Of a stretch of DNA of 48,615 bases, positions 1 to 17,979 are shown in pieces. This DNA is from an uncultured Candidatus Peribacteria bacterium. GTDB lineage: Bacteria > Patescibacteriota > Gracilibacteria > UBA4473. The notes below the pieces were generated by a model. That model was not told where the DNA came from. It saw only the letters and a list, made by a program, of their open reading frames with translations, and did no database searches. A program made the translations under genes and the position numbers. How positions within the stretch are numbered: position 1 is the first letter of the stretch; each line of letters begins with the position of its first letter. The stretch lies in the NCBI GenBank assembly GCA_964459435.1, contig CAYWLU010000001.1, forward strand, positions 11,151 through 59,765, in the 5' to 3' direction.

Positions 1-780
1 AGACTTGTAAAATCTTTAAATGATCCCAGTGAAGGTCTAGCTGGAAAATATGATATTTATCAAGAAGCACTATTAAAACATACTGATCATTTCAAAGGAA
101 CTAAAGAATGCCCTGATACAGTTGATGACTATAGTGTGTATGGTTTTTCAGATATTATTGCCTGTGAAGAAAAAATACATAATGTCCAAACAGAACTGGC
201 AAAAAAAGTAGACGATCGAAAAGATGAATTTAATGGAACTGATGATGAATTAAAAGAAGTTATTGAAAACACAAAAGCAACTATAGGTTCTATTGAAAGT
301 ATAATTCAAAAATGTAAAGAATGGATAGAATATGGTGATCAAACATTAAACCATTGGTGCGGAACTCCTCTTTCTGGAAAAGAATACGGAGGCGTTGGCA
401 AAATTTTTCGTGCCCAAGAGCAAATCGTCAATGATCGCACTCTAGCTTATTTAGGTTCTCGAACTTCGCATTTTGATACTGATGTTCTTAGTGTCGGTAA
501 TGAAAAATTACTTAATTTATTTATAGGCACAAATGAGGACACAATTGAACACAATGTTTTACATAAAACTATAAAAATCATGGCACAGGCTTTAGGTACT
601 TTTGCAGTGCTAATCTTGATTGTTGGTGGACTACTAATGATTACCTCTCAAGGAGATGAAAATCGTCTTCAAAAAGGAAAAAATATTCTTTTTTACACTA
701 TTCTTGGACTAATTATGGCTTTTACCGCCTACATACTAGTTCAATTTGTTATTTCTATTTTGTTTACAGCCACCGGATAA
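1..780 (+). CDS. VirB2/TrbC-like pilin-domain membrane protein (5' end outside window)
   Basis: Frame 1 is open from nt 1 to the listed GTG at 136, so the ORF is cut by the window edge. A long acidic N-terminal part is followed by two C-terminal hydrophobic helices joined by a short charged loop (LLMITSQGDENRLQKGKNILFYTILGL). The same tail occurs in ORFs 782-1543, 7221-7667, 7667-8371 and 8371-8772. Confidence 0.55.
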   Translation, partial: RLVKSLNDPSEGLAGKYDIYQEALLKHTDHFKGTKECPDTVDDYSVYGFSDIIACEEKIHNVQTELAKKVDDRKDEFNGTDDELKEVIENTKATIGSIESIIQKCKEWIEYGDQTLNHWCGTPLSGKEYGGVGKIFRAQEQIVNDRTLAYLGSRTSHFDTDVLSVGNEKLLNLFIGTNEDTIEHNVLHKTIKIMAQALGTFAVLILIVGGLLMITSQGDENRLQKGKNILFYTILGLIMAFTAYILVQFVISILFTATG

Positions 781-781
781 A

Positions 782-1543
782 ATGAAAAAATTATTTCTAG
801 TTTTTACTTTATTCTTCCTTCTCAACGGAAATTTAACCTTCGCTGAATCACCACAAGACCCTTGTGGCGAAGGAGTTGATTGTTATCGAATAGAATTACG
901 AGAATCCTTAATACCAGATAAAAACCCAACAACTGGTCGAACGGGTGACATAATAACTGGTCGAACGGGTATGGAACTCACTAAAAATTACATTACCCTA
1001 ATTTATACATACGGAGCATCTCTAATTGGAATTATTTGTGTGCTCTTAATTGTTTTTTCGGGAATACAAATCATTACGGGAGGTGCTGATGCCGAAAATG
1101 TCACTCAAGCAAAAACTAGAATCTTCAATTCCCTACTTAGCTTAGTTCTGCTTTTTATGTCTGCCATGATTTTAAAAAGTATTAACCCGGGATTTTTTAG
1201 ACATGGAAGAGATTCTTCTAATATTATCATCGGTCTTGATGGCGAAGCAATACCCATCGCTCCTTTGTGTAAATTCGCTGAAATAATACCTCCTAGTTGT
1301 TATACGAATGGAAAACGCGCAGATAACTGCAAGGCAGAAGGTACAGACCTCTGTATTGCTCTGAATCAAGACGAAGAAAAAACAAATTGTGTTAAAATTT
1401 TACAAGGTTTGCTTTCTGGTGCTGGTTCTTTTAATGAAATAGACGCATGTAACGGATTAACAAATTTTGAAGATGGAGCCTATGGGGACTGTACTTTCGC
1501 TGCTTTTACAGCATGGGAAACAAAATACTGTGACACAAAATAA
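782..1543 (+). CDS. Pilin-like membrane protein with signal peptide and Cys-rich C-terminal extension
   Basis: ATG at 782 (MKKLFLVFTLFFLL, signal-peptide-like) lies 1 nt after the upstream stop; the listed 746 start only adds an overlap. Central helix-loop-helix (IICVLLIVFSGIQIITGGADAENVTQAKTRIFNSLLSLVLLF) resembles the neighbouring pilin paralogs. It is followed by a roughly 110-aa tail with 8 Cys. Confidence 0.5.
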   Translation: MKKLFLVFTLFFLLNGNLTFAESPQDPCGEGVDCYRIELRESLIPDKNPTTGRTGDIITGRTGMELTKNYITLIYTYGASLIGIICVLLIVFSGIQIITGGADAENVTQAKTRIFNSLLSLVLLFMSAMILKSINPGFFRHGRDSSNIIIGLDGEAIPIAPLCKFAEIIPPSCYTNGKRADNCKAEGTDLCIALNQDEEKTNCVKILQGLLSGAGSFNEIDACNGLTNFEDGAYGDCTFAAFTAWETKYCDTK

Positions 1544-1580
1544 CTTCTCAACTAAAATTTGACACTTCTCTACCCCCCCT

Positions 1581-1666
1581 GTCATTGCGAGCGACTGTAG
1601 GGAGCGTGGCAATCTCCTAATCATAAAGATAAGATTGCTTCGGTCGTTGCACTCTCTCGCAATGAC
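1581..1666. repeat. Family A hairpin repeat (GTCATTGCGAG ... CTCGCAATGAC outer stem, GCAATCT/AGATTGC inner stem)
   Basis: 11-nt terminal inverted repeats at 1581-1591 and 1656-1666 with an inner palindrome. The whole element is the reverse complement of the copy at 8846-8931. It is flanked by a 16-nt direct repeat, AAAATTTGACACTTCT, at 1554-1569 and 1696-1711. Confidence 0.8.
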
Positions 1667-1819
1667 AATGCTGAGGGTATAAAAAGTTACATGAATAAAA
1701 TTTGACACTTCTGGAAAAAAAAGTAGTGTTTATTCGCTTTTTTCTGCGTGTTTAGGGATGAAGTGTACGATTCAGTAGCTCTCCTAGTTACCTCCTAACC
1801 GTGATTAATATCCAATAAC

Positions 1820-2299
1820 ATGATTGCAGTAGCAAAAATCGGTGGACATCAAGAGATTGTCCAAATCGGCGACCAAATAGAAACAGATAAATTAGACACA
1901 GAAGTTGGAAAGACTATTTCTTTTGAAACTTTACTAATTAGTGAAGAAGACGGAACAAATTTTAAAGTTGGAACTCCTTTTTTAGAAGAAAAAGTAGAAG
2001 CTAAAATATTAGAACACGGACGAGACAAAAAGATTATCGTCTTCAAAATGAAACCAAGAAAAAGATACCGAAAAACACTCGGGCATCGTCAAGATTACAC
2101 TCTTATCGAAATCACTAAAATTGGAGCAAATAGTGCCAAACCTGCTAAAAAAGAAACAACTGTTAAAGAAACTAAAGTTGTAGAAAAAAAAGAAGTTAAA
2201 AAAGTAGCTCCAAAAAAGACGGTTAAAAAGACTGTAGCCAAAAAACCAGCCGTTAAAAAAGCTCCAGTAAAAAAGGTAGCCAAAAAATTGAAAAGTTAA
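1820..2299 (+). CDS. rplU: 50S ribosomal protein L21 with Lys/Ala/Pro-rich C-terminal tail
   Basis: MIAVAKIGGHQEIVQIGD...FKMKPRKRYRKTLGHRQDYTLIEITKI is a typical L21 core. Residues from about 100 to 159 form a KKxxK-rich extension. Confidence 0.93.
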   Translation: MIAVAKIGGHQEIVQIGDQIETDKLDTEVGKTISFETLLISEEDGTNFKVGTPFLEEKVEAKILEHGRDKKIIVFKMKPRKRYRKTLGHRQDYTLIEITKIGANSAKPAKKETTVKETKVVEKKEVKKVAPKKTVKKTVAKKPAVKKAPVKKVAKKLKS

Positions 2300-2347
2300 A
2301 AATCCAGATATTCTTTGATTTTCAACTTTTTATTAATCATTACGGCA

Positions 2348-2363
2348 TTATATTATAATATAA
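2348..2363. repeat. All-AT palindrome TTATATTATAATATAA (ATATTATAATAT family)
   Basis: Perfect 16-nt palindrome in the convergent rplU/guaA intergenic region. It is one of 8 copies of this core in the window. Confidence 0.85.
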
Positions 2364-2367
2364 CATT

Positions 2368-2441
2368 GTCATTGCGAGCAAAGCGAAGCAATCTCAGAGA
2401 TTGCCACGTCATTTTGTTAACACAAAACTCCTCGCAATGAC
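2368..2441. repeat. Family A hairpin repeat
   Basis: GTCATTGCGAG at 2368-2378 and CTCGCAATGAC at 2431-2441. Inner perfect hairpin GCAATCTC/GAGATTGC at 2388-2404. Confidence 0.8.
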
Positions 2442-2453
2442 AACACTTGTTGT

Positions 2454-2488
2454 CTTATTCTTCATTACTCATTATTCATTAATCATTG
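2454..2488 (-). repeat. Tandem heptamer array TAATGA(A/G), 5 units, directly after the guaA stop
   Basis: Minus strand reads TGA(stop) GA CAATGAT TAATGAA TAATGAG TAATGAA GAATAAG, with strict 7-nt period. The same motif follows the ribE stop at 5554-5592. Confidence 0.85.
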
Positions 2489-2490
2489 TC

Positions 2491-4332
2491 TCACTCCCAT
2501 TCAATTGTTCCGGGAGGTTTACTAGTCACATCTAAGAATACTGCTGATACTTTTCCTTCTTGCAAGATACCAGAAGCAACTTTAGCAAAAAATCTCCAAG
2601 GGAGTTTCCCAACACTAGCAGACATTGCATCAATAGAATCTATCGGACGAAGAATAATTGATTCTTCTCCTGTTTGATTAAAAGACACAGGAATCAAAAC
2701 AGTCGGAAACTGCCATACTTTTTCATAAAGATTCATTTCTAATAAAGTCCGATTCACAATATCATCTGCCGTCTGCAAAAGCTTAACCCTATCTTTGGTA
2801 ATACTCTTTTTGTGTAGTTGTACTTCCCTAATTTCTCCTAAGAAGTTTTTATCTAAAAGCACCAATCCCCTATTAATCTCAGAATAATGATTAATTAAAT
2901 TAGTCGCATGCTTCTCTAATACTTTGAGTTCGAACTCCGCAGAGTTCGAACTCTTAATTCCCGTTAAAATTGCCGGATGACGATATGTCCTAAAATCCCC
3001 CTGCACTCCAACGGACTTAATCGGGAGCACAATAAATGGCTTCTTATTCGTCTGAAGTGTAAAAGAATTAATCTTTCCTAATTCCTTATTTGAAGATTGA
3101 AGTTTGAAGATTGAAGATTCATTTGAGCAAAGGATTCTTACTCCTAGACCTGGACCAGGAAAGGGATGTCTCCAAACAAGATTGTGTGGCAATCCCAAAA
3201 GCTCACCCAGAGCTCTCACTTCGTCCTTATACAGTTCTTTTATTGGTTCTATAATCTTTCCCTCATCTATTAATTTCTGAACCGCAGGGGCTCGATTATG
3301 ATGTGTTTTAATCTTATCGGCATGAGCAGTTCCCCCAGTTTCTATAGTATCTGGATAAATAGTTCCTTGGGCTAGCAACCAATCCTCATGTAAATCATGT
3401 TTCGTAAAAAAATCCTGCTGAACATCTAAAAAAGTATGACCGATTATTTCTCGTTTTTTTTCTGGATCATAAATATTTTCTAGATTAGCTAAAAATCGTT
3501 CTCCTTCGCTAAGAACTGTCAGGTCTGCACCCAGTGCTTTTATTTCTTTCTCCACAAACTCTACTTCCCCTTTTCTCATAAGTCCGATATCTACAAAAAG
3601 ACCCTTAACTCGCTCTGCTCCTAAAATCTCGGTCAAAAGCATAAAACTAACCGTAGAATCTACCCCCCCAGAAACAAAAAGAAAAACATTTTTATCGCCT
3701 ACTTGCTCTTTTATTTTCTTTTTTTCTCCTTCCAAAAATTTCTCCATCGTCCAGTCCCGAGCCACCCCACAAATATCTAGGAAATTTTCAAAAACTTTAG
3801 TCCCAAATTCTGAATGAGTTACTTCTAAATGAAACTGGGTAGAGAAAATATTCTTCTCTGGATGACATAAGGATGCATGCGTACAACAATCTGTTGTTGC
3901 ACAATTAATAAATCCCTCAGCCGGTTCTCCCACTTCATCGACATGATTCATCCAGAAAATAGATTTTTCTGGTACATCCTTAAACAAAGGACATTCTTTG
4001 TTATGAGTTACTTCTGCTCGACCAAATTCCCCTTTCTTTCCTGGAAGAACCTTTCCTCCTAAGGAATGAGTAATGAACTGATGACCATAACAAATACCAA
4101 GGATAGGAAGACCTAAGTCAAAAACAGCTAAATCGCATTTGGGAGAATTCTCTTCAAAAACACTCTGAGGACCTCCAGACATAATAATTCCCTTGATGCT
4201 TTCATCCTTGAATTGCTCTATTGGTGTAGAAATATCCCAAATCTCAGCCAAGACATTCTGCCGTCTAATGCGATTAGCAATGAGATGGGCGTATTGTCCG
4301 CCAAAATCGAGAATGATGATTTTTTCGTGCAT
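2491..4332 (-). CDS. guaA: GMP synthase (glutamine-hydrolysing), long C-terminal form
   Basis: N-terminal class-I amidotransferase (IIILDFGGQYAHLIANRIR, GICYGHQ), PP-loop SGGVDS, and C-terminal ..KPPGTIEWE. The ATG at 4332 (MHEKIIILDFGGQY) is preferred over the listed TTG at 4356. Confidence 0.93.
   Translation of the reverse strand: MHEKIIILDFGGQYAHLIANRIRRQNVLAEIWDISTPIEQFKDESIKGIIMSGGPQSVFEENSPKCDLAVFDLGLPILGICYGHQFITHSLGGKVLPGKKGEFGRAEVTHNKECPLFKDVPEKSIFWMNHVDEVGEPAEGFINCATTDCCTHASLCHPEKNIFSTQFHLEVTHSEFGTKVFENFLDICGVARDWTMEKFLEGEKKKIKEQVGDKNVFLFVSGGVDSTVSFMLLTEILGAERVKGLFVDIGLMRKGEVEFVEKEIKALGADLTVLSEGERFLANLENIYDPEKKREIIGHTFLDVQQDFFTKHDLHEDWLLAQGTIYPDTIETGGTAHADKIKTHHNRAPAVQKLIDEGKIIEPIKELYKDEVRALGELLGLPHNLVWRHPFPGPGLGVRILCSNESSIFKLQSSNKELGKINSFTLQTNKKPFIVLPIKSVGVQGDFRTYRHPAILTGIKSSNSAEFELKVLEKHATNLINHYSEINRGLVLLDKNFLGEIREVQLHKKSITKDRVKLLQTADDIVNRTLLEMNLYEKVWQFPTVLIPVSFNQTGEESIILRPIDSIDAMSASVGKLPWRFFAKVASGILQEGKVSAVFLDVTSKPPGTIEWE
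3089..3120. repeat. TTGAAGA-type heptamer tract inside guaA
   Basis: tttgaagattgaagtttgaagattgaagattc on the plus strand. It is read on the stop-free minus strand as ..SSIFKLQSSNKE.. within guaA. Confidence 0.8.
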
Positions 4333-4347
4333 TATAAAAAAATTATA

Positions 4348-4372
4348 AATCTTCAATCTTCAATCTTCAATT
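4348..4372 (-). repeat. TTGAAGA heptamer array between the ribD stop and the guaA start
   Basis: Plus strand aatcttcaatcttcaatcttcaatt; minus strand AATTGAAGATTGAAGATTGAAGATT, 16 nt upstream of the guaA ATG. Confidence 0.85.
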
Positions 4373-4394
4373 AAAAATGAATAAAACCTAAATC

Positions 4395-5435
4395 CTAAAA
4401 TTTAAATCTCATCAGCACATCACCTTCTAAGTTCTCAACTTCACAGAGTTTGAACTTTTTAAAGTTCGAACTCAAATCTGTGGTAAAACTATTTTTTCCA
4501 ATTCCAAAAATCTCTGACGCTATAAAAAGTTGAATCTCGTCCACTAAATCTTGTTTCAGAAGTTCGGTACAAACCTCTGCTCCACATTCGGTCATAATAG
4601 AATCTATTCCTTTCTTCCCGCATTCTTGTAAAACTTCTTCTAAATTATGAGTTTCAAAGAAATGAATCTTCCTGTCTGGAATACTAAAAATCTTAGCTGT
4701 TTTTGGTATTTCTCTTTTTCCTATCACAATTAAATCGGGATTAGAAGAACCATCTAATCTACAATCTAGTCTAGGATCGTCCTGGAGGATTGTTTCTGTA
4801 GTTGTTAATATTGCAGAGTAATTAGCCCTCATTTCGTGCACTTTCTTTCTAGAAAGCTCATTAGAAATATATTCAATCCCGGGTTCAAAATTTCCAGAAC
4901 CCGGGATCTGCTTTGTTATTTTCCCATCTAAACTCTGGGCTAGTTTAAGTGTTACATATGGTAAACCAGTAGTAACAAACTTCTCTAAAAAAGGATTAAG
5001 TGAGTTACATTTTTCGTTACTTTGTACTTCAACTTCTATTCCTGCTTTCCGTATCTTCTCTAAATTCTCCCCCTTGAATCTCGGATCTAAACTACCAACT
5101 ATTACTTTCTGTGGTCTTTTTTGGATAAGTAAATCTGTGCAACTAGGAGTTTTTTTACCAGAAAACACATCACAAGGTTCTAGGGTTATATACACTTCAC
5201 AATCGCTTAAATTATAATTTTCCCCAAGTTTTTCTATAGCTTCTCTTTCAGCATGTAAACCACCAAATTTTCTATGAACTCCCTCTGAAATAATTTCTTT
5301 CTTTAAAGATTGAAGATTGTAGTTTGAAGATCGTAGTTTAACTATTACACATGCCACTCTAGGATTAGGAGAAACTGCATGAGGATCTACCTGTTCAGCA
5401 AGTTCTATCGCTAATTTCATAAAATCAATTTTCAT
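4395..5435 (-). CDS. ribD: Bifunctional riboflavin biosynthesis protein RibD (deaminase/reductase)
   Basis: Deaminase motifs HAEREAI and TLEPC, then a reductase domain (VTLKLAQSLDGKIT...). It carries two repeat-derived in-frame inserts (see repeats 4878-4905 and 5307-5339). Confidence 0.9.
   Translation of the reverse strand: MKIDFMKLAIELAEQVDPHAVSPNPRVACVIVKLRSSNYNLQSLKKEIISEGVHRKFGGLHAEREAIEKLGENYNLSDCEVYITLEPCDVFSGKKTPSCTDLLIQKRPQKVIVGSLDPRFKGENLEKIRKAGIEVEVQSNEKCNSLNPFLEKFVTTGLPYVTLKLAQSLDGKITKQIPGSGNFEPGIEYISNELSRKKVHEMRANYSAILTTTETILQDDPRLDCRLDGSSNPDLIVIGKREIPKTAKIFSIPDRKIHFFETHNLEEVLQECGKKGIDSIMTECGAEVCTELLKQDLVDEIQLFIASEIFGIGKNSFTTDLSSNFKKFKLCEVENLEGDVLMRFKF
4878..4905. repeat. Family D palindromic element CCCGGGTTCAAAATTTCCAGAACCCGGG, in frame in ribD
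   Basis: 9-bp stem and 10-nt loop, with 28/28 identity to 5728-5755. Translated as PGSGNFEPG in ribD. Confidence 0.9.
5307..5339. repeat. Heptamer tract (TTGAAGA / TTTGTAG types) inside ribD
   Basis: agattgaagattgtagtttgaagatcgtagttt, read on the minus strand as ..LRSSNYNLQSLK.. between the conserved CVIVK and EGVH...HAE segments of the deaminase domain. Confidence 0.8.
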
Positions 5436-5456
5436 TTCTTTTTAAAATTTAAAAAA

Positions 5457-5544
5457 TGTCATACCAGATTTATTCTGGCATCTAACCATAAATAAAGCAG
5501 ATGTTTAATCCATCGCTAGATCCCGCAATAAATGCGGGATGACA
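5457..5544 (+). repeat. Family B double-hairpin repeat (TGTCATACC... / ...GATCCCGCAATAAATGCGGGATGACA)
   Basis: Outer TGTCAT/ATGACA ends, with hairpins CCAGA-tttat-TCTGG and ATCCCGC-aataaat-GCGGGAT. Other copies lie at 13125-13214 and 25018-25205. Confidence 0.8.
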
Positions 5545-5553
5545 TCGTTTTTT

Positions 5554-5592
5554 TTCATTCTTCATTATTCATTACTCATTATTCATTACTCA
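5554..5592 (-). repeat. Tandem heptamer array TAATGA(A/G) beginning at the ribE stop codon
   Basis: Minus strand reads TGA(stop)G TAATGAA TAATGAG TAATGAA TAATGAA GAATGAA. Confidence 0.85.
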
Positions 5593-6198
5593 ATGCTGAA
5601 CATTGAGTATATATTTTCCTAAAATATCAAATTCTAAGTTAACCAAATCTCCAATCTTTTTGTCAGATAAATTAGTTACTTCCCAAGTATGAGAAATGAT
5701 ACAAGTTTCAAACCAATTTTCATTTAACCCGGGTTCAAAATTTCCAGAACCCGGGTTAAAAATATTAGAAACTGTTAAAGAAATTCCATTTACTGCGATA
5801 GAACCTTTTTCCACAACTAACTTGGCATTTTCTTTACTGAGAGAAATTCTAAACAACCAATAATCTCCTTGTCTTTTTAAATCTAAAATCTTTCCTTTCT
5901 CGTCTATATGACCAGTGACAAAATGACCAGAATTCCGTTCTCCTGTTCTAGCAGATCTTTCTAAATTAACACTGTCTCCTTCTTTTGCTTCCCCGAAAGT
6001 TGTCCTATTCCTCGACTCTTCCATAATCTCCACCTTGAACCAATCTTTGTCCATCTCGACAACCGTTGCGCACATCCCAGAAAGAGCAATCGATTCTCCC
6101 AACCCCAGAGGATCCGTTATATTATAATATAATACAGTAAACAAATTCCCTTTGATTTTCTTTATTTCGCCAGTTGTTTCTACAATTCCAGTAAACAT
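5590..6198 (-). CDS. ribE: Riboflavin synthase (alpha chain)
   Basis: MFTGIVETTGEIKKI start and a duplicated barrel pattern (..GESIALSGMCATVV.., ..GSIAVNGISLTVS..). It carries the family D palindrome in frame. Confidence 0.9.
   Translation of the reverse strand: MFTGIVETTGEIKKIKGNLFTVLYYNITDPLGLGESIALSGMCATVVEMDKDWFKVEIMEESRNRTTFGEAKEGDSVNLERSARTGERNSGHFVTGHIDEKGKILDLKRQGDYWLFRISLSKENAKLVVEKGSIAVNGISLTVSNIFNPGSGNFEPGLNENWFETCIISHTWEVTNLSDKKIGDLVNLEFDILGKYILNVQH
5728..5755. repeat. Family D palindromic element, in frame in ribE
   Basis: Identical 28-mer to 4878-4905, translated in the same frame as PGSGNFEPG. The palindrome extends to ttaaCCCGGG...CCCGGGttaa (5724-5759). Confidence 0.9.
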
Positions 6199-6210
6199 GT
6201 AAATGAATTA

Positions 6211-6237
6211 TCAATTATCAATCTTCAAACTACAAAT
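6211..6237 (-). repeat. Heptamer tract (TTGAAGA/TTTGTAG types) just upstream of the ribE start
   Basis: Plus strand tcaattatcaatcttcaaactacaaat; minus strand atttgtagtttgaagattgataattga. Confidence 0.7.
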
Positions 6238-6256
6238 AAAAAACATACATATCACA

Positions 6257-6464
6257 GTCATTCTGGCTTGTCCAGAATCCTGACTAGTAAATATCCTATA
6301 TGAAAACGTTAGTGCTTATCTCGACATCAGTACCACGCTAACGCTTATGAGCATGATAAATTCGCTTCTGATTCTGCTCGTTGAGGATAGCGAACTGTTC
6401 CGAGCTTGCTCGAGAACAAGTAAGCGACGCAAATGATAAGCGAAGCGTCACAAGCCGGAATGAC
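6257..6464 (-). mobile_element. MITE-like element with about 15-nt terminal inverted repeats (GTCATTCYGGCTTGT), carrying a family C core
   Basis: Left end gtcattctggcttgtcc. The right end, reverse-complemented, is gtcattccggcttgtgacgc. The internal about 80 nt, reverse-complemented, closely matches 25035-25115. No coding capacity. Confidence 0.6.
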
Positions 6465-6539
6465 TAAAAGATTGATACCTTTTTGAATTGCCAAAATTAA
6501 TCAATTTTTGTAACGTACCCTCGTAATTTCCCTTTAAGT

Positions 6540-7046
6540 ATGACTGACGACAATAATCAAAATCAGAAGCAAGGAGATACTCAACCAACTCCTCCTGTTC
6601 CACAGGCTGGTCAAGCTCAACCTGCTGAAACTCAACCTCCTGCTCAAACTACTCCCCCAGACCCTAACTCCCGAGTTGGACAATTAGGGGTCAGAGATAA
6701 AAACATCTTTACTATCCCTGCTCATCCCAACACAACTTTTGATGATAAAAACTTTCTTACTCTATTGGAAGGTTCTATTTCTCTTACTATGGAGGAAAAG
6801 AAGCGAGTTATTGATGCTATTCCACGACTAAAAATAGAACAAATAAATGAACTTATTAAAATTTTTGAAGAAGAAAAACAGAAGTTCTCAGAACTAGAAA
6901 AAGAGTTTTCTGATGATGTTTCTAAATTAAAGAAAGAACGAGAAAAAGAAATTCATATAGGAGAAATCAAACAAGAAGAACAAACTGAAAGCGCCTCCGA
7001 AAACGAAGAAGCCGAAGCTCTCAAAAGAAAATTAATGGGAAGCTAG
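6540..7046 (+). CDS. Hypothetical protein with Pro/Gln-rich N-terminus and coiled-coil acidic C-terminus
   Basis: ATG ORF with a low-complexity PTPPVPQAGQAQPAETQPPAQTTPP segment, followed by a charged helical region. No family recognised. Confidence 0.5.
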   Translation: MTDDNNQNQKQGDTQPTPPVPQAGQAQPAETQPPAQTTPPDPNSRVGQLGVRDKNIFTIPAHPNTTFDDKNFLTLLEGSISLTMEEKKRVIDAIPRLKIEQINELIKIFEEEKQKFSELEKEFSDDVSKLKKEREKEIHIGEIKQEEQTESASENEEAEALKRKLMGS

Positions 7047-7127
7047 TCCACAGTCTATAGTTAATAGTCTATAGTTAATAGTCTTTAGTTTTTAGCAATT
7101 AGCTAATGGCTAATTACTAACTTAGAA
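7044..7127 (+). repeat. 12-unit tandem heptamer array with TAG every 7 nt, starting at the stop codon of ORF 6540-7046
   Basis: Units: tagtcca cagtcta tagttaa tagtcta tagttaa tagtctt tagtttt tagcaat tagctaa tggctaa ttactaa cttagaa. TAG falls at 7044, 7058, 7065, 7072, 7079, 7086, 7093 and 7100. Confidence 0.9.
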
Positions 7128-7162
7128 TTTTATACATAATACTTAATACATTATACATAACG
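7128..7162. repeat. Heptamer array of the (T/A)TAATAC type
   Basis: tttatac ataatac ttaatac attatac ataac. Related arrays lie at 21741-21779, 23187-23232 and 25241-25270. Confidence 0.7.
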
Positions 7163-7172
7163 CTCTAACAGC

Positions 7173-7184
7173 ATATTATAATAT
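7173..7184. repeat. All-AT palindrome ATATTATAATAT
   Basis: gcATATTATAATATcc in a convergent intergenic region, followed 8 nt later by a TTGAAGA array. Confidence 0.8.
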
Positions 7185-7192
7185 CCATCCTT

Positions 7193-7218
7193 AATTGAAG
7201 ATTGAAAATTGAAGATTG
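7193..7218 (+). repeat. TTGAAGA heptamer array abutting the stop of ORF 7221-7667
   Basis: aattgaagattgaaaattgaagattg. Confidence 0.85.
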
Positions 7219-7220
7219 TT

Positions 7221-7667
7221 TCATCCTCCCGCATAAGAAGAAGCAATAATTGTTTTTACTAACACATAAGAACCAACAATTACAACAAGTCCTACAAGTG
7301 ACCAAATCAGTCCTTTTTTAGCATTAGCTATTTTATCAGATTCTCCAACAGCCGTTATCAAGGTAAAGCAATTCAGTACTATAAAAAGTACTGCCAACGC
7401 TGCCGCAACTCCCGTCAATCCATTACCAAATTTCTGCATAATATTTGTTATATCGGTTACATCACCAGTAAGTTTGTTTATTTCAGCATTTGGGCTTCCA
7501 TCAATCGTTATTCCTGGTAAATGAGCTGGTCTAGTTTTTGATTCCGCGGGAAGAAGTTTATTAATAGCATCATTTAAATCATACGGTGGAATATCCTTTT
7601 CTTCTGCAAAAACCACCCCACTAAGGCTAAAAAATAATATAAAACTAAAAATAAATATTTTTTTCAT
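7221..7667 (-). CDS. VirB2/TrbC-like pilin-domain protein
   Basis: Signal peptide MKKIFIFSFILFFSLSGVVFA, then two C-terminal TM helices with the loop AVGESDKIANAKKG. Confidence 0.6.
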   Translation of the reverse strand: MKKIFIFSFILFFSLSGVVFAEEKDIPPYDLNDAINKLLPAESKTRPAHLPGITIDGSPNAEINKLTGDVTDITNIMQKFGNGLTGVAAALAVLFIVLNCFTLITAVGESDKIANAKKGLIWSLVGLVVIVGSYVLVKTIIASSYAGG

Positions 7668-8371
7668 TAGGTTGCAAGGAAGAAATAAAGAGCTTTCATT
7701 AGAGAATAACTAACGACTATAAATATTACTCCCAGCAAAGCATACATAAAGAATGTTTTAGATTTTTCAAGATCCTCGTCATTTCCAGAAGCATAAATCA
7801 ATCTAATTCCAGAAAAAATAAACATGATCATTACGATAGGGGCAACAAATTTCAGTAAAATATCAATTATCCGTGGAATATATTGTAGCCCAAATTTCTG
7901 ATCCCCAGCATAACCAATCACTCCCGCTGGTTGAACATTTTTTTCTGCAACTCTGAGAGCGTCTATTGTTGCTGAAATTTCTTTTTCTTTGTCTCCAATT
8001 TCTTTATTTTTGTTCCATATTTTTTCATCAATTTTCTTTATTTCATCCTCTATCGTAAAATATTCTATATCCATTGAATCTATAGAATCTTCATCAGGAA
8101 CTGAAGGAAGTCCTAATCGTAATCTTTCTCCTATAGAAACGCCTAATTCCGTATTCTTATTTGTCAGCTCCTTTTCAAATCCAGGCAGCTCATCTTCTAA
8201 ATCTTTTAATTCTTCTTTCATAGTTTTAGTAGCCCCATCTATTTCTGTTTGGATAGTATCTGCCCCCCACCAAGAAGGGAAAAGAACTTTTTCCATACCT
8301 TCATTAAGACCTTGAGCAGAGACTATTCCACTTATAAGGATCAACCCAATTCCTAAAAATACTTTTTTCAT
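7667..8371 (-). CDS. VirB2/TrbC-like pilin-domain protein with a long coiled-coil ectodomain
   Basis: Signal peptide MKKVFLGIGLILISGIVSA, C-terminal TM-loop-TM (..IFSGIRLIYASGNDEDLEKSKTFFMYALLGV..). Its stop and start overlap the neighbouring genes by 1 nt, which suggests one operon. Confidence 0.55.
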   Translation of the reverse strand: MKKVFLGIGLILISGIVSAQGLNEGMEKVLFPSWWGADTIQTEIDGATKTMKEELKDLEDELPGFEKELTNKNTELGVSIGERLRLGLPSVPDEDSIDSMDIEYFTIEDEIKKIDEKIWNKNKEIGDKEKEISATIDALRVAEKNVQPAGVIGYAGDQKFGLQYIPRIIDILLKFVAPIVMIMFIFSGIRLIYASGNDEDLEKSKTFFMYALLGVIFIVVSYSLMKALYFFLAT

Positions 8372-8772
8372 TACCCAGAAAAATTAATACCAATAATAAA
8401 TCTCACAACAGCTACCGCTAAAATCGCAATAGTTGCTCCCACTGCCGTCCAAAAAATAATGTCCTTCGCTTTCTGTTTCATTTCCGATTCTCCAGAACTA
8501 ATTACAAGATAAACTCCAGCAACAATAATCATCCCTACACAAATTGCTAAAAAAATCATTAAGAGTCTATTAGTAACTCCCGGAATTAAATTTTTTACCA
8601 CATATTCCTGTCCACTAGCACCTTCTATTCGTCCTGTAACTTTATTAACCTCTCCCCCCGTACTAATTGCTGGACCTGGAAGAACTCCGCCATGAAACAC
8701 TGGAGGAACTCCAGAAGCTAATACTCCTTCCAAAGAAAGAAATAAACTTAAAATAAAAATTAATTTTTTCAT
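8371..8772 (-). CDS. VirB2/TrbC-like pilin-domain protein
   Basis: ATG at 8772 (MKKLIFILSLFLSLEGVLA) is preferred. C-terminal TM-loop-TM (..VYLVISSGESEMKQKAKDIIFWTAVG..). Confidence 0.6.
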   Translation of the reverse strand: MKKLIFILSLFLSLEGVLASGVPPVFHGGVLPGPAISTGGEVNKVTGRIEGASGQEYVVKNLIPGVTNRLLMIFLAICVGMIIVAGVYLVISSGESEMKQKAKDIIFWTAVGATIAILAVAVVRFIIGINFSG

Positions 8773-8845
8773 ATATATCAATAATACACCAAGTTAATAC
8801 TAAAGGTTAAAAATAAAATTTAAAAGTTTTCATGCCCCCAGTATT

Positions 8846-8931
8846 GTCATTGCGAGAGAGTGAAACAATCGAAGCAATCTCATAATCTCAAGCAAGAGAT
8901 TGCCACGCTCCCTATAGTCGCTCGCAATGAC
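8846..8931. repeat. Family A hairpin repeat (reverse orientation of 1581-1666)
   Basis: GTCATTGCGAG at 8846-8856 and CTCGCAATGAC at 8921-8931. The right half, gagattgccacgctccctatagtcgctcgcaatgac, is the reverse complement of the left half of copy 1581-1666. Confidence 0.8.
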
Positions 8932-8965
8932 AGCTTTGTAAAAAGCTATAAATTTGCAATAAATA

Positions 8966-8994
8966 TTGAAAAAGTCTCATATTTATGCTATAAT
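8966..8994 (+). promoter_or_regulatory. Sigma70-type promoter for pilT (TTGAAA, 17 nt, TGcTATAAT)
   Basis: TTGAAA at 8966-8971, a 17-nt spacer, and an extended -10 TGC+TATAAT at 8986-8994. The predicted TSS near 9001 would give a leader of about 15 nt with no Shine-Dalgarno. Confidence 0.55.
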
Positions 8995-9016
8995 AAAAAG
9001 ATAATCTCAACTTAAA

Positions 9017-10201
9017 ATGCCAGAAGAGAAAAAACCTATTCAACAAACTACTACTCCACTAGGAACTACTGTTCCTGAAGACAAACCTATTGTTGGTGCT
9101 AATATACCTAATCTAGTTAACAAGGAAGTCTCCGAAGGATTTAAAACCATCTATCACTCCGACTCCAATGTTACTGGACATATTGCCAAACTTTTACTCA
9201 AATTAGTTCAAGCTGGAGCATCAGATGTTTTCTTATCTTCTGGGTCTCTTCCTGCTTGTCAAATAGACGGAACAACTGCTTTTATCGAAGGAGAAGAAAT
9301 AGTAAAAACAGAAAAACTTTTAGAAGTCTTGAGTGATTATGACCAAAAAAAATTACTAGAAAATCTTGGACAGGATTTTGGGGTATCCATTGAGGGAGGT
9401 TATCGCTTCCGAGCAAATGCTTTTTTACAAAAAAATGGACTCTCTATTGCTTTCCGAGTAATTCCTTCCAAAATTCCAAGTTTTGAAGAACGAGGTTTAC
9501 CAGAACAATTAAAACGAATTGTAGATATGGATTCTGGATTAGTAATTGTAACTGGATCAACTGGATCTGGTAAATCATCTACACTAGCGACTATTGTGGA
9601 TCTTATTAATGAAAATCACCAAAAACATATTATTACTATTGAAGACCCCATTGAGTTTATCCATCACAATAAAAAATCGCTAATAGAGCAACGGGAAGTT
9701 GGTTTACATGCTAAAAGTTTTGACCGAGCGCTCCGTTCTGCTTTGAGAGAAGCACCAGATGTAATTCTTGTCGGAGAATTGCGAGATCTAGAAACAACAG
9801 CTCTGGCTCTTACTGCCGCGGAGACTGGATCACTTGTTCTCGCTACCTTACATGCCAATAGTGCTCCAAGCGCTGTAACTCGTATGATAGATATCTTTCC
9901 GAATGCTCAACAAAATCAAATTCGCAGTCAATTAGCCCAATCATTACAAGCCATTATTTGGCAAACTCTAATACCTAATAAGTCAGGCACGGGACGATCT
10001 TGTGTATTTGAAGTTATGTTCCGAAACTATGCGGTTAGTACTATGATTCGAGATAATAAAGTTTATCAGCTAAAATCTGTTATTGAAACTAGTAAAAAAG
10101 CTGGCATGATTCCCGTAAAAGATTGTTTAGAAGAGTTAGTTAAACAAGATAAAATAGAAATAGAAATCGCTCAAAATATTTTGAATAACCATGTATCGTA
10201 A
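9017..10201 (+). CDS. pilT: Type IV pilus retraction ATPase PilT-like
   Basis: Walker A GSTGSGKSST, Asp box IITIEDPIEF, Walker B DVILVGELRD, His box TGSLVLATLHANSA. It has an N-terminal extension of about 50 aa. Confidence 0.85.
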   Translation: MPEEKKPIQQTTTPLGTTVPEDKPIVGANIPNLVNKEVSEGFKTIYHSDSNVTGHIAKLLLKLVQAGASDVFLSSGSLPACQIDGTTAFIEGEEIVKTEKLLEVLSDYDQKKLLENLGQDFGVSIEGGYRFRANAFLQKNGLSIAFRVIPSKIPSFEERGLPEQLKRIVDMDSGLVIVTGSTGSGKSSTLATIVDLINENHQKHIITIEDPIEFIHHNKKSLIEQREVGLHAKSFDRALRSALREAPDVILVGELRDLETTALALTAAETGSLVLATLHANSAPSAVTRMIDIFPNAQQNQIRSQLAQSLQAIIWQTLIPNKSGTGRSCVFEVMFRNYAVSTMIRDNKVYQLKSVIETSKKAGMIPVKDCLEELVKQDKIEIEIAQNILNNHVS

Positions 10202-10255
10202 GAAAGTCTAAAAGTTAAAAAGTTTAAAAACTAAAAAGATATAAAGCCCAAATAG

Positions 10256-10269
10256 TATATTATAATATA
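10256..10269. repeat. All-AT palindrome TATATTATAATATA
   Basis: Perfect 14-nt palindrome in the convergent pilT/LCP intergenic region, followed by a TTGAAGA array. Confidence 0.85.
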
Positions 10270-10280
10270 ATACTCAACCT

Positions 10281-10313
10281 TAATTGAAGATTGAAGATTG
10301 ATAATTGAAGATT
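10281..10313 (+). repeat. TTGAAGA heptamer array abutting the stop of the LCP gene
   Basis: aattgaagattgaagattgataattgaagattt. Confidence 0.85.
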
Positions 10314-10316
10314 TAT

Positions 10317-11660
10317 CTAATTTGTTCCTAAAATAATCTGAATATCTATTAAATTGTTCGGATCTATTGATTCTACTAATACATTTTCTAGATGACTGGT
10401 TTCAAGCAAACTAGCTAAAAAATTTGTAGTTTTAAGAGTTTTTTCTGGAGTAAAATTTTTGAGAAAAGTCTTATATACTGGAATATCTGAATCATAATTA
10501 CCTACTTCAATGATATGCAAACCTAAACGACGAAGTCGTTCTGCAATTTTTGATGCTTTACCTTCTAATTTAGAACCATTAAGAACAGATATTTGAGCAT
10601 TTTCTAAAAGAATCTCTGGATGAATTAAAACTAAATCTAAAAATGTCTGCGTATCTTTTAGGTTCTCTGGTAATAAAACATATTGACCACCATAAAATTC
10701 CATAGCTGGAGTAAACAAAAATCCTCCCCGCTTCATAACATCGTCATTAAGAACCGCCGAAACTGCATTAGAGTAATCAATAGCTAGTCCCATCTTTGCC
10801 AAAGCCACAACCTGAGTCAGACCCAAGTCAGTATTAACATGCTTACGATAAATCTGGAAAAATTCAGCCAATTTACCAAAATCAGTTAAAAGACTTAAAT
10901 CTTCGGCTCTTTTTCGAAGAGCAAGAATGAGGTCTTGTTGTCTTTGTGCCCGATCATAGTCCGATGAAGTTTTTCTACTTCGAGCATATTTAAGAGCAGT
11001 TGCTCCATCTAAATGTTGCAACCCTTTTCTAATCACAAATGTTTGATAACCATAATCTCTATCTGGATAAAAAGGATCTTCTATGTCTGTTGGCACAAAA
11101 ATTTCTATTCCATTAAGAGCATCTACGACTTCCTCAAAAACCTTAAAATTAATTACTGCTCCATAATGGATTCTAATTCCAGAAAACTCAGATATAGCAC
11201 TCTTAATAATTTCTAAACCTTTTCTATCTCCATGTTTATAACGAGCGGCAGCATATATTTCATTAAGTTTTCTTTCTCCTATTTTAGAAGGAATAAATAA
11301 ATCTCTAGGTAAACTCAAAAATGCCACCGAAGGATTTTGCGGATTAAAAGAAGCAATCATGATGGAATCTGAAAGATTTCCTCCTTCTGCCCCATCTCCT
11401 CCCACTCCCAGTAATAGAATATTCGTATGACCATTAGAATCTTGACTCAAAGGACCAAGGGAAAGAATATCTCTTGTTTTTTGAGCAAAATGAAAATCTG
11501 AACTCATAATTGCAGAAGCTATCCCAAAAACAATTGATAAACTAATTATGATAGCCAAAACTACTGATAGCTTGGGTCCAAAGTATCTGACCCACCTTCT
11601 CCACCATTTGTTTTTTATTTTTTGCTGATTCCTAGATATCTTGCGAACTTTAAAATTCAT
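10317..11660 (-). CDS. LytR-CpsA-Psr (LCP) family cell-envelope transferase
   Basis: N-terminal TM anchor, then LLLGVGGDG...NLSDSIMIASFNP...LSLPRDL, which is typical of LCP domains, followed by a C-terminal LytR_C-like region. Confidence 0.85.
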   Translation of the reverse strand: MNFKVRKISRNQQKIKNKWWRRWVRYFGPKLSVVLAIIISLSIVFGIASAIMSSDFHFAQKTRDILSLGPLSQDSNGHTNILLLGVGGDGAEGGNLSDSIMIASFNPQNPSVAFLSLPRDLFIPSKIGERKLNEIYAAARYKHGDRKGLEIIKSAISEFSGIRIHYGAVINFKVFEEVVDALNGIEIFVPTDIEDPFYPDRDYGYQTFVIRKGLQHLDGATALKYARSRKTSSDYDRAQRQQDLILALRKRAEDLSLLTDFGKLAEFFQIYRKHVNTDLGLTQVVALAKMGLAIDYSNAVSAVLNDDVMKRGGFLFTPAMEFYGGQYVLLPENLKDTQTFLDLVLIHPEILLENAQISVLNGSKLEGKASKIAERLRRLGLHIIEVGNYDSDIPVYKTFLKNFTPEKTLKTTNFLASLLETSHLENVLVESIDPNNLIDIQIILGTN

Positions 11661-11706
11661 CGGGCAAATTGTAGGAGAATTTTTTCATTCGTCAAAAACA
11701 TCCTAT

Positions 11707-11803
11707 GTCATTGCGAGTTCGCCATACTTGCCTACCTTGGTGGGGCGAACATGGCAATCTCTTCTTTATGATTATGAGATTGCTTCGCTTTGCTCGCAAT
11801 GAC
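11707..11803. repeat. Family A hairpin repeat overlapping the 5' end of the MurL-like gene
   Basis: GTCATTGCGAG at 11707-11717 and CTCGCAATGAC at 11793-11803. The ATG at 11799 lies inside the right arm. Confidence 0.8.
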
Positions 11804-13178
11804 AACATATGTATTATTCACATTGATGACTCCTATTTACCAAACTTTTATTTTTGAAGATTTTTCTTTTGATCAAGAGAATAAAAAATTAATTCTGAAA
11901 TACTCTCTAGATGAAGAATTGTTTTTCACAGAAGAAGTAATTTTTGATTTTAAGTTTATAGAAAATATTAATAAAAAAGCCCTCCAAAATGCTTTATTTG
12001 GTGTTTGGGTTATGCTTGGAATCTCTTATTTCAAAACTTTTCTTCCTCCTGAGATTAAATTCAAAAAATATGGACTCACTTCTGATCAAGCAAAATTCTT
12101 CCAAAAAACTTGGGAAAAGGGTCTAGGAGAATTCTTTTACCAAAATAAAATCTCCCCAAAAGGAAAAATAAACTTTTCAAGTGATGAAAAATCCGCATTA
12201 ACAAATTCTGTCTCCTTAGCTGTCTCAGGCTCTATTATGCCTCTGGGAGGAGGTAAAGATTCTTTAGTAACCGCCGAAATCTTAAAAGAAAACAATGAAG
12301 ATTTTTCCACTTGGACAGTAGGAGAGTTTCCTTTTCTACAAAATATGGTTGATAAACTAGAAGTTCCACATTTAATGGTTAAGCGTCATATAGATCTAAA
12401 ACTTCTAGATTTAAATAAAAATGGTGCCCTAAATGGACATGTTCCTATTTCGGCTATATTAGCTTTCCTAGGAGTAACAAGTGCTATTCTTACAGGCAAA
12501 AAAAACATCATTCTCTCTAATGAGAATTCTGCGAGTGAACCAACAGTAGAAGATATTAATCATCAGTATTCTAAATCTTTGGAATTCGAAAAAGATTTTC
12601 AAGAATATGTAAAAAGTTTTATCTCACCAGACCTAAATTATTTTTCTTTTCTCCGTCCCCTATCAGAACTAAAAATCGCTCAAATCTTTTGTGAAAAATG
12701 TTTAGATAAATATGAAAAAGACTTTTCTTCCTGTAATCGCAATTTTAAAATCAAAAATCAAAAATCAAAAAATCTAACTTGGTGCGGAGAATGTCCTAAA
12801 TGTGCTTTTGTATTTGCAATCTTTGCCCCGTTTCTAGAAAGAGACAAACTTCTAGCTCTTTTTGGCAAAAATCTTTTTGCAGATAATAATTTAGACCAAA
12901 CTTTTCGAGAACTTCTAGGACTAGAAAAAACGAAACCCTTTGAATGTGTTGGAGAAATAGAAGAAGTAAGAAAGGCTTTAGAAATGTCTAAAGATAAATG
13001 GCCAGAATTATCTAAATTTGATTTCCCTAAACCTAATTTTGATCTAGAAGAACTTAATCCGCATTTGATGCCAGAAAGGTTTGAAAAAATATTTAACCTT
13101 CACATATCCAATATTACAAATATCTGTCATACCGGATTTATTCCGGTATCTAGTCATAAAAATAATGCAAATAATTAA
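11799..13178 (+). CDS. PP-loop (GGGKDS) protein, probable MurL-type UDP-MurNAc-L-Ala-L-Glu epimerase
   Basis: ATP-pyrophosphatase-like motif PLGGGKDSLV and a C-terminal CGECPKC motif. About 460 aa, lying directly upstream of and in the same orientation as a MurD2-like ligase. Start is uncertain (ATG 11799 inside a repeat, or ATG 11826). The last roughly 17 codons come from repeat 13125-13214. Confidence 0.55.
   Translation: MTTYVLFTLMTPIYQTFIFEDFSFDQENKKLILKYSLDEELFFTEEVIFDFKFIENINKKALQNALFGVWVMLGISYFKTFLPPEIKFKKYGLTSDQAKFFQKTWEKGLGEFFYQNKISPKGKINFSSDEKSALTNSVSLAVSGSIMPLGGGKDSLVTAEILKENNEDFSTWTVGEFPFLQNMVDKLEVPHLMVKRHIDLKLLDLNKNGALNGHVPISAILAFLGVTSAILTGKKNIILSNENSASEPTVEDINHQYSKSLEFEKDFQEYVKSFISPDLNYFSFLRPLSELKIAQIFCEKCLDKYEKDFSSCNRNFKIKNQKSKNLTWCGECPKCAFVFAIFAPFLERDKLLALFGKNLFADNNLDQTFRELLGLEKTKPFECVGEIEEVRKALEMSKDKWPELSKFDFPKPNFDLEELNPHLMPERFEKIFNLHISNITNICHTGFIPVSSHKNNANN
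12747..12774 (+). repeat. AAAATCA heptamer tract inside the MurL-like CDS
   Basis: aaaatca aaaatca aaaatca aaaaatc, translated as ..FKIKNQKSKN.. just before the CGECPKC motif. Confidence 0.75.
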
Positions 13179-13214
13179 TTCACAGCTAGATCCCGCAATA
13201 AATGCGGGATGACA
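13125..13214 (+). repeat. Family B double-hairpin repeat spanning the 3' end of the MurL-like CDS
   Basis: tgtcataccggatttattccggtatcta...gctagatcccgcaataaatgcgggatgaca. It encodes the terminal CHTGFIPVSSHKNNANN plus the stop. Confidence 0.8.
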
Positions 13215-13258
13215 CAGAAAGGAGATGACAATATATTGGTATACAAATTCATATAAAC

Positions 13259-14500: not shown

Positions 14501-14517
14501 ATTAAGCTAAAAAAAAC

Positions 14518-14546
14518 TTGCAATATTATATAAAATTATATATAAT
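14518..14546 (+). promoter_or_regulatory. Promoter of toxin-antitoxin pair 1 (TTGCAA, 17 nt, TATAAT) with flanking 11-bp inverted repeat
   Basis: TTGCAA at 14518-14523 and TATAAT at 14541-14546. AATATTATATA (14522-14532) and TATATAATATT (14551-14561) form an inverted repeat bracketing the -10, so it is operator-like. Confidence 0.55.
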
Positions 14547-14573
14547 TAAATATATAATATTCTATATACAAAA

Positions 14574-14810: not shown

Positions 14811-14818
14811 ACTGGACT

Positions 14819-15076: not shown

Positions 15077-15079
15077 ATT

Positions 15080-15244: not shown

Positions 15245-15303
15245 GGTGGGGTAAATGGAGGAAGTTTGTTCTGTGTTGATTTGTACCGAATTTTCTAGAA
15301 AAA

Positions 15304-17850: not shown

Positions 17851-17880
17851 AATCAATTGTCAATTATCAATCTTCAATTA
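17851..17880 (-). repeat. Heptamer tract (TTGAAGA/TTGATAA types) immediately upstream of the mutS ATG
   Basis: Minus strand taattgaagattgataattgacaattgatt, followed by ATG. Confidence 0.7.
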
Positions 17881-17953: not shown

Positions 17954-17979
17954 TGTTTTAATAAATCAGAAAAAATAAC

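Follow-up and report, generated by a model that had tools for sequence, protein, structure and literature searches.

A heptamer array phased on a stop codon in a Candidatus Peribacteria genome, a likely product of heptanucleotide repeat growth

The locus and its heptamer array

We analysed a stretch of 48,615 nt from an uncultured Candidatus Peribacteria bacterium (assembly GCA_964459435.1, contig CAYWLU010000001.1), here called the window, and within it an array of 7-nt units at 7044-7127 that begins at the TAG stop codon of an open reading frame (ORF 6540-7046) and repeats TAG at intervals of 7 nt. The window has a G+C content of 34% and encodes three proteins similar to pilins of the type IV secretion system (T4SS), PilT, RibD, RibE, GuaA, LytR, MutS, ComEC and others. 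The closest genome record was a metagenome-assembled genome (MAG) of Ca. Gracilibacteria (L002), which is syntenic with window positions 136-19840. Exact-protein look-ups gave no match for the pilin at 7221-7667, PilT or ORF 47946-48326. Stop codons in the window are TAA (28), TGA (11) and TAG (5). UGA often codes for glycine in Gracilibacteria, and an alternative genetic code was considered here and ruled out: the conserved proteins are intact under table 11, and GuaA has its canonical terminus (...GTIEWE) closed by TGA. Judged from these proteins, the genome uses the standard code.

ORF 6540-7046 had more than 175 homologues, mostly in records of Gracilibacteria and Peregrinibacteria, with orthologues at syntenic loci, and from this conservation we regard it as a real conserved gene. 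No Pfam or NCBIfam family matched it. Its stop codon is at the same position as in three homologues (L008, L011, L013) and one codon later than in L002. The features of the locus are as follows.

6540-7046, plus strand: conserved hypothetical gene, 168 amino acids (aa); its TAG stop codon at 7044-7046 lies in array unit 1
7044-7127, plus strand: heptamer array, 12 units as first delimited; identity at lag 7 in 52/77 positions, as high in 0/100,000 shuffles
7052-7090, plus strand: tandem core, 2.8 copies of the 14-nt double unit AGTCTATAGTTAAT, from Tandem Repeats Finder (TRF); the insertion or deletion (indel) between strains lies here
7092-7120, no strand assigned: inverted repeat in the degenerate array tail, TTAGCAATTAGC-TAATG-GCTAATTACTAA; 12-bp hairpin with a 5-nt loop
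7132-7160, plus strand: second heptamer array of the spacer, ATACATA/ATACTTA family, from TRF
7173-7184, no strand assigned: palindrome ATATTATAATAT of A and T only, central element of the spacer; found 8 times in the window, with 0.01 copies expected
7193-7218, plus strand: third heptamer array, ATTGAAG family; ends 2 nt short of the stop codon of the minus-strand pilin gene
7221-7667, minus strand: T4SS-pilin-like gene (PF18895, T4SS_pilin, E 4.9e-11), convergent with ORF 6540-7046

The twelve units of the array are TAGTCCA, CAGTCTA, TAGTTAA, TAGTCTA, TAGTTAA, TAGTCTT, TAGTTTT, TAGCAAT, TAGCTAA, TGGCTAA, TTACTAA and CTTAGAA. They are exactly those of the preliminary description, whose observation of a TAG every 7 nt from the stop codon was thus borne out. 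TAG was present at 7044, 7058, 7065, 7072, 7079, 7086, 7093 and 7100; position 7051 reads CAG, so the uninterrupted run consists of seven TAGs in addition to the stop codon of the gene. The highest lag-7 count among the shuffles of the same 84 bases was 43. TRF delimited 7052-7090 with a period of 14, 96% matches and a score of 71, and the clean tandem core is limited to about this segment, in which the true unit is the 14-nt double unit (TAGTCTA TAGTTAA). The array is non-coding, being closed in all six frames, with seven stop triplets on the plus strand and five on the minus strand within the core; at its start the three sense frames are all closed within 30 nt. Because independent assemblies carry the array (identical in L001, with 10 units in L017 and L005), it is no assembly artefact.

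Nearly all of the 174-nt spacer consists of repeats, namely the TAG array, the ATACATA array, the palindrome and the ATTGAAG array. The second array contains a segment that is identical (20/20) to 21745-21764, and related arrays were located at 21615, 23199 and 25248. The third array reads CAATCTT on the sense strand of the pilin gene and is free of stops.

Variation between strains, relatives and loci

Contig L017 matched window 3344-9617 with 99.5% identity over 6.3 kb, with about 15 substitutions and one net indel. This sole indel is exactly one 14-nt double unit inside the TAG array (7052-7065 or 7066-7079). Further comparison over about 12 kb with the near-identical contigs L001 and L018-L021 revealed no indel, and in a total of ~18 kb against strains of 99.5-99.9% identity the double unit of this array is the only one. 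The array of the lineage L005 also lacks one 14-nt double unit, giving 12 units in the window and 10 in both L017 and L005. A slippage-generated minisatellite was among the origins first proposed for the array, with a comparison of copy number across related genomes as a check, and this comparison supports it. Because the double unit is the only indel between L017 and the window, the perfect core would be a very recent 14-nt tandem duplication in the strain of the window. The proteins on both sides are unchanged in length (168 aa in both strains for ORF 6540-7046). L017 has TATTTTT where the window has TAGTTTT, and one TAG was lost by this point change.

Relatives differ much more at this site. 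Over 21 kb, L002 had one or two tiny arrays, and its spacer after the orthologue of ORF 6540-7046 is 29 nt without any repeat, against 174 nt in the window. The spacer is 0 nt in L038 and 21 nt in L041, and the more distant orthologues L006-L016 have no array after the counterpart gene. Median spacers of 129 nt (window) and 98 nt compare with 10.5 nt in L002. The other array-rich lineages are L005 and L036/L037. L005 has a TTGTCCC array in place of the ATTGAAG array at 7193-7218. L036, which judged from the flanks is about as closely related to the window as L005, has a spacer of 193 nt with a TAA stop codon, T-rich degenerate heptamers and a TTCATTC array, and with neither TAG array nor palindrome. 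In the spacer between PilT and LytR, L002 has essentially only the palindrome between two stop codons, and the window and L005 each added different arrays on both sides. As far as these alignments go, the position of an array can be conserved and the sequence of its unit is not.

The window as a whole contained 19 lag-7 arrays against 0.4 expected from shuffles, nearly all of them intergenic. At lag 14 there were 15 arrays, and at every remaining lag there were 0-3. Lag-7 identity was 0.316 in intergenic and 0.271 in coding sequence, and coverage by arrays was ~13-fold higher in intergenic than in coding sequence. Array density was 23 in 48.6 kb for the window, 15 in 20.4 kb for L005 and about 4 per 10 kb for L036, while syntenic relatives had 0-3 per 20 kb; the sample of the array-rich clade covered about 90 kb. 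Unit families recur, with ATTGAAG at six loci, TAGCTAA-like units at three and TAATGAA at two, and also ATACTTA and AGTTTGT.

The array is likely a heptanucleotide repeat of the slippage type, resembling long simple sequence repeats (LSSRs) and the short tandemly repeated repetitive sequences (STRRs) of cyanobacteria, and one of many that grew by tandem duplication in originally tiny spacers. Copy number changes by 14 nt between near-identical strains, and at the same site related lineages have either other arrays or no array. Growth would proceed by slipped-strand mispairing or unequal exchange. The ancestral spacers may have been a few bases around a central element, all of the added DNA being array. 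At the present locus, a unit containing the TAG stop of the gene (TAGTCnA) would have been duplicated downstream, giving a stop-containing array that extends up to the ORF and not into it. The start of the array would coincide with the stop codon because a stop-containing array can grow to the ORF boundary only, and arrays flush with stop or start codons fit growth from tiny spacers that were bounded by coding sequence. The older, degenerate tail may then have drifted to a palindromic TAGCTAA-like form and so have produced the 12-bp hairpin, which, more speculatively, might serve the convergent transcripts as a 3'-end structure.

Loss of mismatch repair was also considered as a cause of the arrays and was rejected, as a full-length MutS equivalog is encoded in the window. 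Bacterial MutS is not known to repair loops of this length (7 nt), so such slips could persist.

Several observations weigh against growth by slippage alone. It does not explain the preference for a unit length of seven bases. Among the stop-containing arrays that follow a stop codon, 4/9 are in phase with the stop of their own gene, against 1 in 7 expected. Identical variant patterns were present at unrelated loci (20/20 for 7137 and 21745; 25/25 for GuaA site 1 of the window and GuaA site 2 of L005), which hints at a copy-and-paste spread that would not be purely in-situ slippage. Lastly, window 7066-7184 is 93% identical to L005 over 119 nt, including 56 nt of array tail that are identical, against 68% at four-fold degenerate sites, which suggests constraint or recent exchange. 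Exchange between lineages would be an equally good explanation, because L017 is a mosaic that carries an L005-like allele at 7040-7071. Purifying selection as the sole cause of this identity is weakened by the mosaic of L017 and by the different spacer of L036, whose flanks are similarly related.

Between the window and the contigs of 99.5-99.9% identity, substitutions were tightly clustered at 7040-7088, 7835-7855, 29744-29814 and 34627-34649. This clustering suggests short recombination tracts.

The high identity with L005 could also point to a cis-acting binding array, in line with the protein- or RNA-binding array among the origins first proposed. In it, each heptamer would be recognised by one cold-shock-domain or S1-type protein with an oligonucleotide/oligosaccharide-binding (OB) fold on untranslated regions (UTRs) of mRNA, or by a DNA-binding protein, and the binding would tune translation initiation or termination or mRNA stability. 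The window and L005 agree at 93-100% of positions in the shared part of the spacer, well above the value at four-fold sites, and the arrays upstream of GuaA and downstream of RibE match at 56/58 and 30/30 positions. In addition, arrays end exactly at start codons (MutS at 17850, RibE, RseP) and lie flush with stop codons, the unit families recur, and CspB is reported to bind heptamer repeats with one protein per unit, as was proposed for the TAACTGA repeats (PMC4679880). But orthologous positions do not share the unit sequence, the unit families are many, and close relatives with the same genes do without arrays, which are also inserted in coding loops. The conservation between the window and L005 is explicable by the exchange seen in the L017 mosaic, and L036 is without the block. 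Mismatches within arrays had no preference for any position of the unit (p = 0.50), which therefore argues against a recognition core; a TAG core with a variable 4-nt spacer, tried as the signature of a binding site, proved to be an artefact of picking arrays by their TAG runs. We consider a binding array unlikely. A broader form of the idea seems slightly less probable again, in which the arrays would be lineage-specific cis-elements flush with stops and starts, read by a cold-shock/S1-type protein or the ribosome and kept by purifying selection, with unit families as interchangeable modules and stop phasing that insulates neighbouring frames.

The shared variant patterns bear on another explanation, in which the arrays are mobile or copy-pasted cassettes, spread by transposition, by non-allelic gene conversion or as insertion/excision footprints with 7-bp target duplications. 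Besides the 20/20 and 25/25 matches, it can draw on a head sequence, TCCTTA(A/T)TTGAAG, common to 7188, 10277 and the GuaA coding insert at 3083, on elements like miniature inverted-repeat transposable elements (MITEs) that this genome hosts and that are missing at orthologous sites, and on (ATTGAAG)n in unrelated heptamer-rich contigs of IMG/VR. However, the arrays could be linked to no terminal inverted repeats, transposase or target duplication, and the polymorphism that was seen is a clean in-register tandem duplication; arrays of the same short unit can also converge on identical strings. Such cassettes are an improbable source of the array.

Gene boundaries, stop codons and the hairpin

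That arrays start at stop codons, as the preliminary description had it, holds in so far as 14/22 arrays lie no more than 5 nt from a stop codon, where random placement predicts 3.4 (p < 1e-4). It does not hold as a property of stop codons alone, since flush placement at gene boundaries was also seen for stop-free units and at start codons. A second stop-phased array on the minus strand (5555-5592) starts from the TGA of RibE itself and reads TGAGTAA, TGAATAA, TGAGTAA, TGAATAA, TGAAGAA and TGAAAAA, with TGA six times. In L005 (9206-9241) the stop-phased RibE array is the entire spacer between RibE and RibD, and the ATG start codon of RibD lies inside the last unit. The start codon of MutS (minus strand, 17850-17881) is directly preceded by ATTGAAG, ATTGATA, ATTGACA and ATTGATT, with no recognisable Shine-Dalgarno sequence. 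Arrays abut the start codons of RibE and RseP as well, and the GuaA start codon is 24 nt from a similar array.

Because any 7-nt tandem unit that contains TAG automatically puts TAG in all frames, the closure of three frames follows from the period. The array had nevertheless been proposed as a three-frame translational backstop, kept by selection to halt ribosomes that read through or frameshift past the end of ORF 6540-7046. Tandem in-frame stop codons are a known concept of a readthrough safeguard; they are in-frame only and usually single. The likeness lies in extra stops soon after the main stop, but that concept involves no periodic repeat, and no sign of selection was found here. In favour of a backstop, all frames are closed within 30 nt by an array that begins right at the stop codon, the RibE array does likewise with its six TGAs, arrays lie flush against stop codons, and the median distance to closing all three frames is 41-60 nt in array-rich genomes against 76-182 nt. 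This last difference, from a small sample, follows lower G+C content.

The comparison with other loci and lineages does not uphold the proposal. Relatives do without the array, with spacers of 0-29 nt, and L036 has an expanded spacer without TAG array. Stop-free arrays occupy equivalent post-stop sites (CAATCTT after three minus-strand genes; GGGACAA after PilT in L005 and L036). TAG-phased arrays of the same family occur on the minus strand where no gene ends, at 45149-45186 with six TAGs, in a divergent promoter region 5' to a gene, and at 32609-32639 with five TAGs, antisense to the 5' UTR of RseP. The array at 40622 follows a stop codon and is out of phase with it. Sense-strand stop triplets were present in 10/15 independent arrays that abut a stop codon, where random heptamers of intergenic or array composition gave 0.47-0.55, so there was no significant excess of sense-strand stops in post-stop arrays. 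L017, as described, has lost one TAG. In the sampled ~90 kb, the results thus came essentially to the outcome that had been named beforehand as speaking against stop phasing, namely a random phase and strand with respect to flanking stop codons and stop triplets at the level of composition. A selected backstop is therefore very improbable, and the phasing on the stop codon is probably a by-product of the repeat and no dedicated translational safety net.

Heptamer arrays were also identified inside conserved genes, in the stop-free orientation, at 3089-3119 (GuaA), 5306-5339 (RibD), 12747-12771 and 42869-42943 (an Elp3-like radical SAM gene), and in the GuaA gene of L005 at 6694-6718 and 6878-6908. 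The GuaA proteins of the window and L005 carry the array-encoded peptide IFKLQSSN at different loops, from an identical 25-nt array string. The peptides in RibD and the Elp3-like gene are of the SSNYNLQSL- and NLQSSNYKLQT-types, and another such peptide is NLQSSNYKLQTINFKLQTT. In the coding array of L005 GuaA an in-frame TGA is changed to TTA. Coding arrays that are stop-free or stop-mutated are what would be expected of an indiscriminate mutational process filtered by selection.

Array units 8-11 (7092-7120) double as the arms of the inverted repeat. As minus-strand RNA the hairpin folds with -13.1 kcal/mol (z -4.87; 0/200 shuffles fold as well), and as plus-strand RNA with -9.5 kcal/mol (z -1.95). 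We therefore weighed whether the locus is mainly a 3'-end element, in which the hairpin acts as a two-way terminator or stabilising stem-loop for the convergent genes and the tandem part is a by-product. The minus-strand fold fits this, as do the position between convergent genes and the hairpin sequence, which is identical (100%) in L005 and L017; TAGCTA is palindromic, which lets arrays of the TAGCTAA type behind other genes (40622; L005 6093) fold as well. But these other arrays fold no better than shuffles (z -0.4 to -0.6), and neither does the whole spacer (z -1.1 and -1.4), in which only the local hairpin stands out. Only 2-3 of the 12 stem pairs are G-C; a U-tract next to the stem is missing on the minus strand, and the plus strand offers only UUUU from 7 nt past the stem, so the hairpin lacks the features of a Rho-independent terminator. 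Our terminator scan, which asked for three or more G-C pairs and for a T-run that begins no more than 2 bases from the stem, did not call it, and around the array neither sigma-70 promoters nor intrinsic terminators exceeded the shuffle expectation. Rfam returned nothing at the gathering threshold except two tRNAs elsewhere, and the sole match in 6200-7300 had an E-value of 0.94, so the region does not belong to a known RNA family in that database. L036 and L002 are without the hairpin, and all copies are identical, which leaves no covariation. A primary role as a 3'-end element is accordingly doubtful, and less probable than a binding array.

Known repeat systems and other repeats of the window

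The STRRs of heterocystous cyanobacteria have the consensus units CCCCAGT, TTGGTCA and CAACAGT. Their resemblance to the present arrays, which had been remarked upon at the outset, is apt: both are heptanucleotide tandem arrays with several families per genome, and in the window too a few unit families are dispersed over many intergenic loci. They differ in that STRRs belong to another phylum, while the window arrays are AT-rich and short (3-12 units). None of the three consensus units occurs as a repeat in the window, whose closest record is the Ca. Gracilibacteria MAG. Phase-variation repeats of Haemophilus, Neisseria and Moraxella share the change of copy number by slippage between close strains. 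However, they sit in 5' coding regions or promoters, where length switches expression, whereas the TAG array lies between convergent genes, from a stop codon onwards, and its length alters no reading frame, which is not the arrangement of a phase-variable contingency locus.

Arrays phased on stop codons had been thought undescribed, which is incorrect. The AT-rich TAACTGA heptamer repeats contain stops in forward translation, overlap the ends of coding sequences by at most 18 nt and occur only in reverse inside ORFs (MacGregor 2015, PMC4679880). The same paper makes the point that a stop-containing repeat can extend to an ORF but not into it. This system, from marine Beggiatoaceae, some Cyanobacteria and Bacteroidetes (PMC4679880), shares with the window arrays the AT-rich units with forward stops, the nearly exclusive intergenic location, the frequent flush placement at start codons, the stop-free orientation within ORFs and close relatives without repeats. 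The orientation limit applies here in that the coding arrays of GuaA, RibD and the Elp3-like gene are without in-frame sense stops. The TAACTGA system has a single unit in 2-6 copies in the genome of the Orange Guaymas Beggiatoa type (BOGUAY), mostly upstream of start codons, whereas the window has many unit families at both gene ends. Direct repeats of TAACTGA (TAACTGATAACTGA) were searched on both strands of the window and were not found.

Heptanucleotides are the most abundant long simple sequence repeats in many bacteria, for which polymerase slippage was proposed (Mrazek 2007 as summarised in PMC4679880). LSSRs of 5-11 nt (Mrazek et al. 2007 via PMC4679880; also PMC4692102), as characterised in these summaries, are like the window arrays longer than chance, favour heptanucleotides, have a sporadic phylogeny, are attributed to polymerase slippage and are kept out of coding regions unless frame-neutral, although they are a general class and not a specific system. 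The TAG array has head-to-tail 7-nt units with a 14-nt higher-order unit, is longer than chance for its composition (0/100,000 shuffles, and 19 arrays against 0.4 in the window) and changes between close genomes by whole units (a 14-nt indel of two units; L017, L005). The kind of array is thus already known: it has the defining features of heptanucleotide repeats and not the taxon- and sequence-specific features of STRR or TAACTGA repeats. The literature that we searched contained no LSSR report for the Candidate Phyla Radiation or Gracilibacteria.

More notable than the stop phasing is the heavy repeat load in a streamlined genome of the Candidate Phyla Radiation. The spacers are about ten times those of the syntenic relative, the extra DNA is largely heptamer arrays, MITE-like elements and small hairpins; even loops of GuaA, RibD and the Elp3-like enzyme contain arrays. 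From array-free relatives through three array-rich lineages to strain polymorphism there is a natural series for the birth, spread and death of 7-nt repeats, a long-standing question for STRRs and long simple sequence repeats. The arrays are also strain-typing markers for an uncultured group. For annotation they are a warning: any 7-nt repeat whose unit contains a stop can, as a by-product, give a striking stop-phased periodicity behind a gene.

A minority of window arrays have an 8-nt period (10203-10246, 33562-33614 and 48420-48442, with AAAGTCTA, ACTTTTAA and TACTTTTC) and are flush with gene ends. The heptamer ATTGAAG recurs in distant lineages, as TAACTGA does. (ATTGAAG)3 was present in 13 unrelated viral contigs, some of them heptamer-rich, which has no bearing on the array at 7044-7127. 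Among them, the unrelated IMG/VR contigs L024, L029, L030, L031, L033 and L034 have 45-62% G+C, and such contigs are also rich in GTCAATG, TTCAATG, CCTTCAG and AATGAAG arrays. In a phage database, L030 matched only a human-gut virus, with an 83% hit spanning about 60 nt.

The AT-only palindrome of the spacer, often extended to TTATATTATAATATAA, is located in the window at 2350, 6119, 7173, 10257, 17940, 27893, 45186 and 47875, that is, in four convergent spacers, in three divergent ones and, in one copy, within RibE. It is also found in L002 (6917, 11198, 18889) and L005 (10515, 13434, 15013, 17969), where it is kept at orthologous sites, and its extended form is nearly the whole PilT/LytR spacer of L002. 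It could act as a two-way terminator or as a bidirectional -10 element, or serve as a protein site or as a DNA-uptake signal, ComEC and PilT being encoded in the neighbourhood.

Four MITE-like elements, 74-97 nt long, were identified at 1581-1666, 2368-2441, 8846-8931 and 11707-11803; their 11-nt terminal inverted repeats (GTCATTGCGAG...CTCGCAATGAC) are perfect, and GCAATCTC and GAGATTGC pair in an internal stem. For three of these elements the orthologous spacers of L005 and L002 were inspected, and all are without the element; because of this absence the elements would be mobile or recently acquired. A palindromic element, CCCGGGTTCAAAATTTCC(T)AGAACCCGGG, is inserted in frame at 4881-4915 (RibD) and 5731-5765 (RibE) and occurs in an intergenic position at 31598-31633. 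The insert yields GSGNFEPG in both RibD and RibE, and L002 is without it; as a palindromic insert within genes it is similar to the Rickettsia palindromic elements. Finally, a small hairpin repeat, GATCCCGCAATAAATGCGGGAT, has three identical intergenic copies (5519-5540, 13189-13210 and 25180-25201, against 0 expected) and a variant near 35172.

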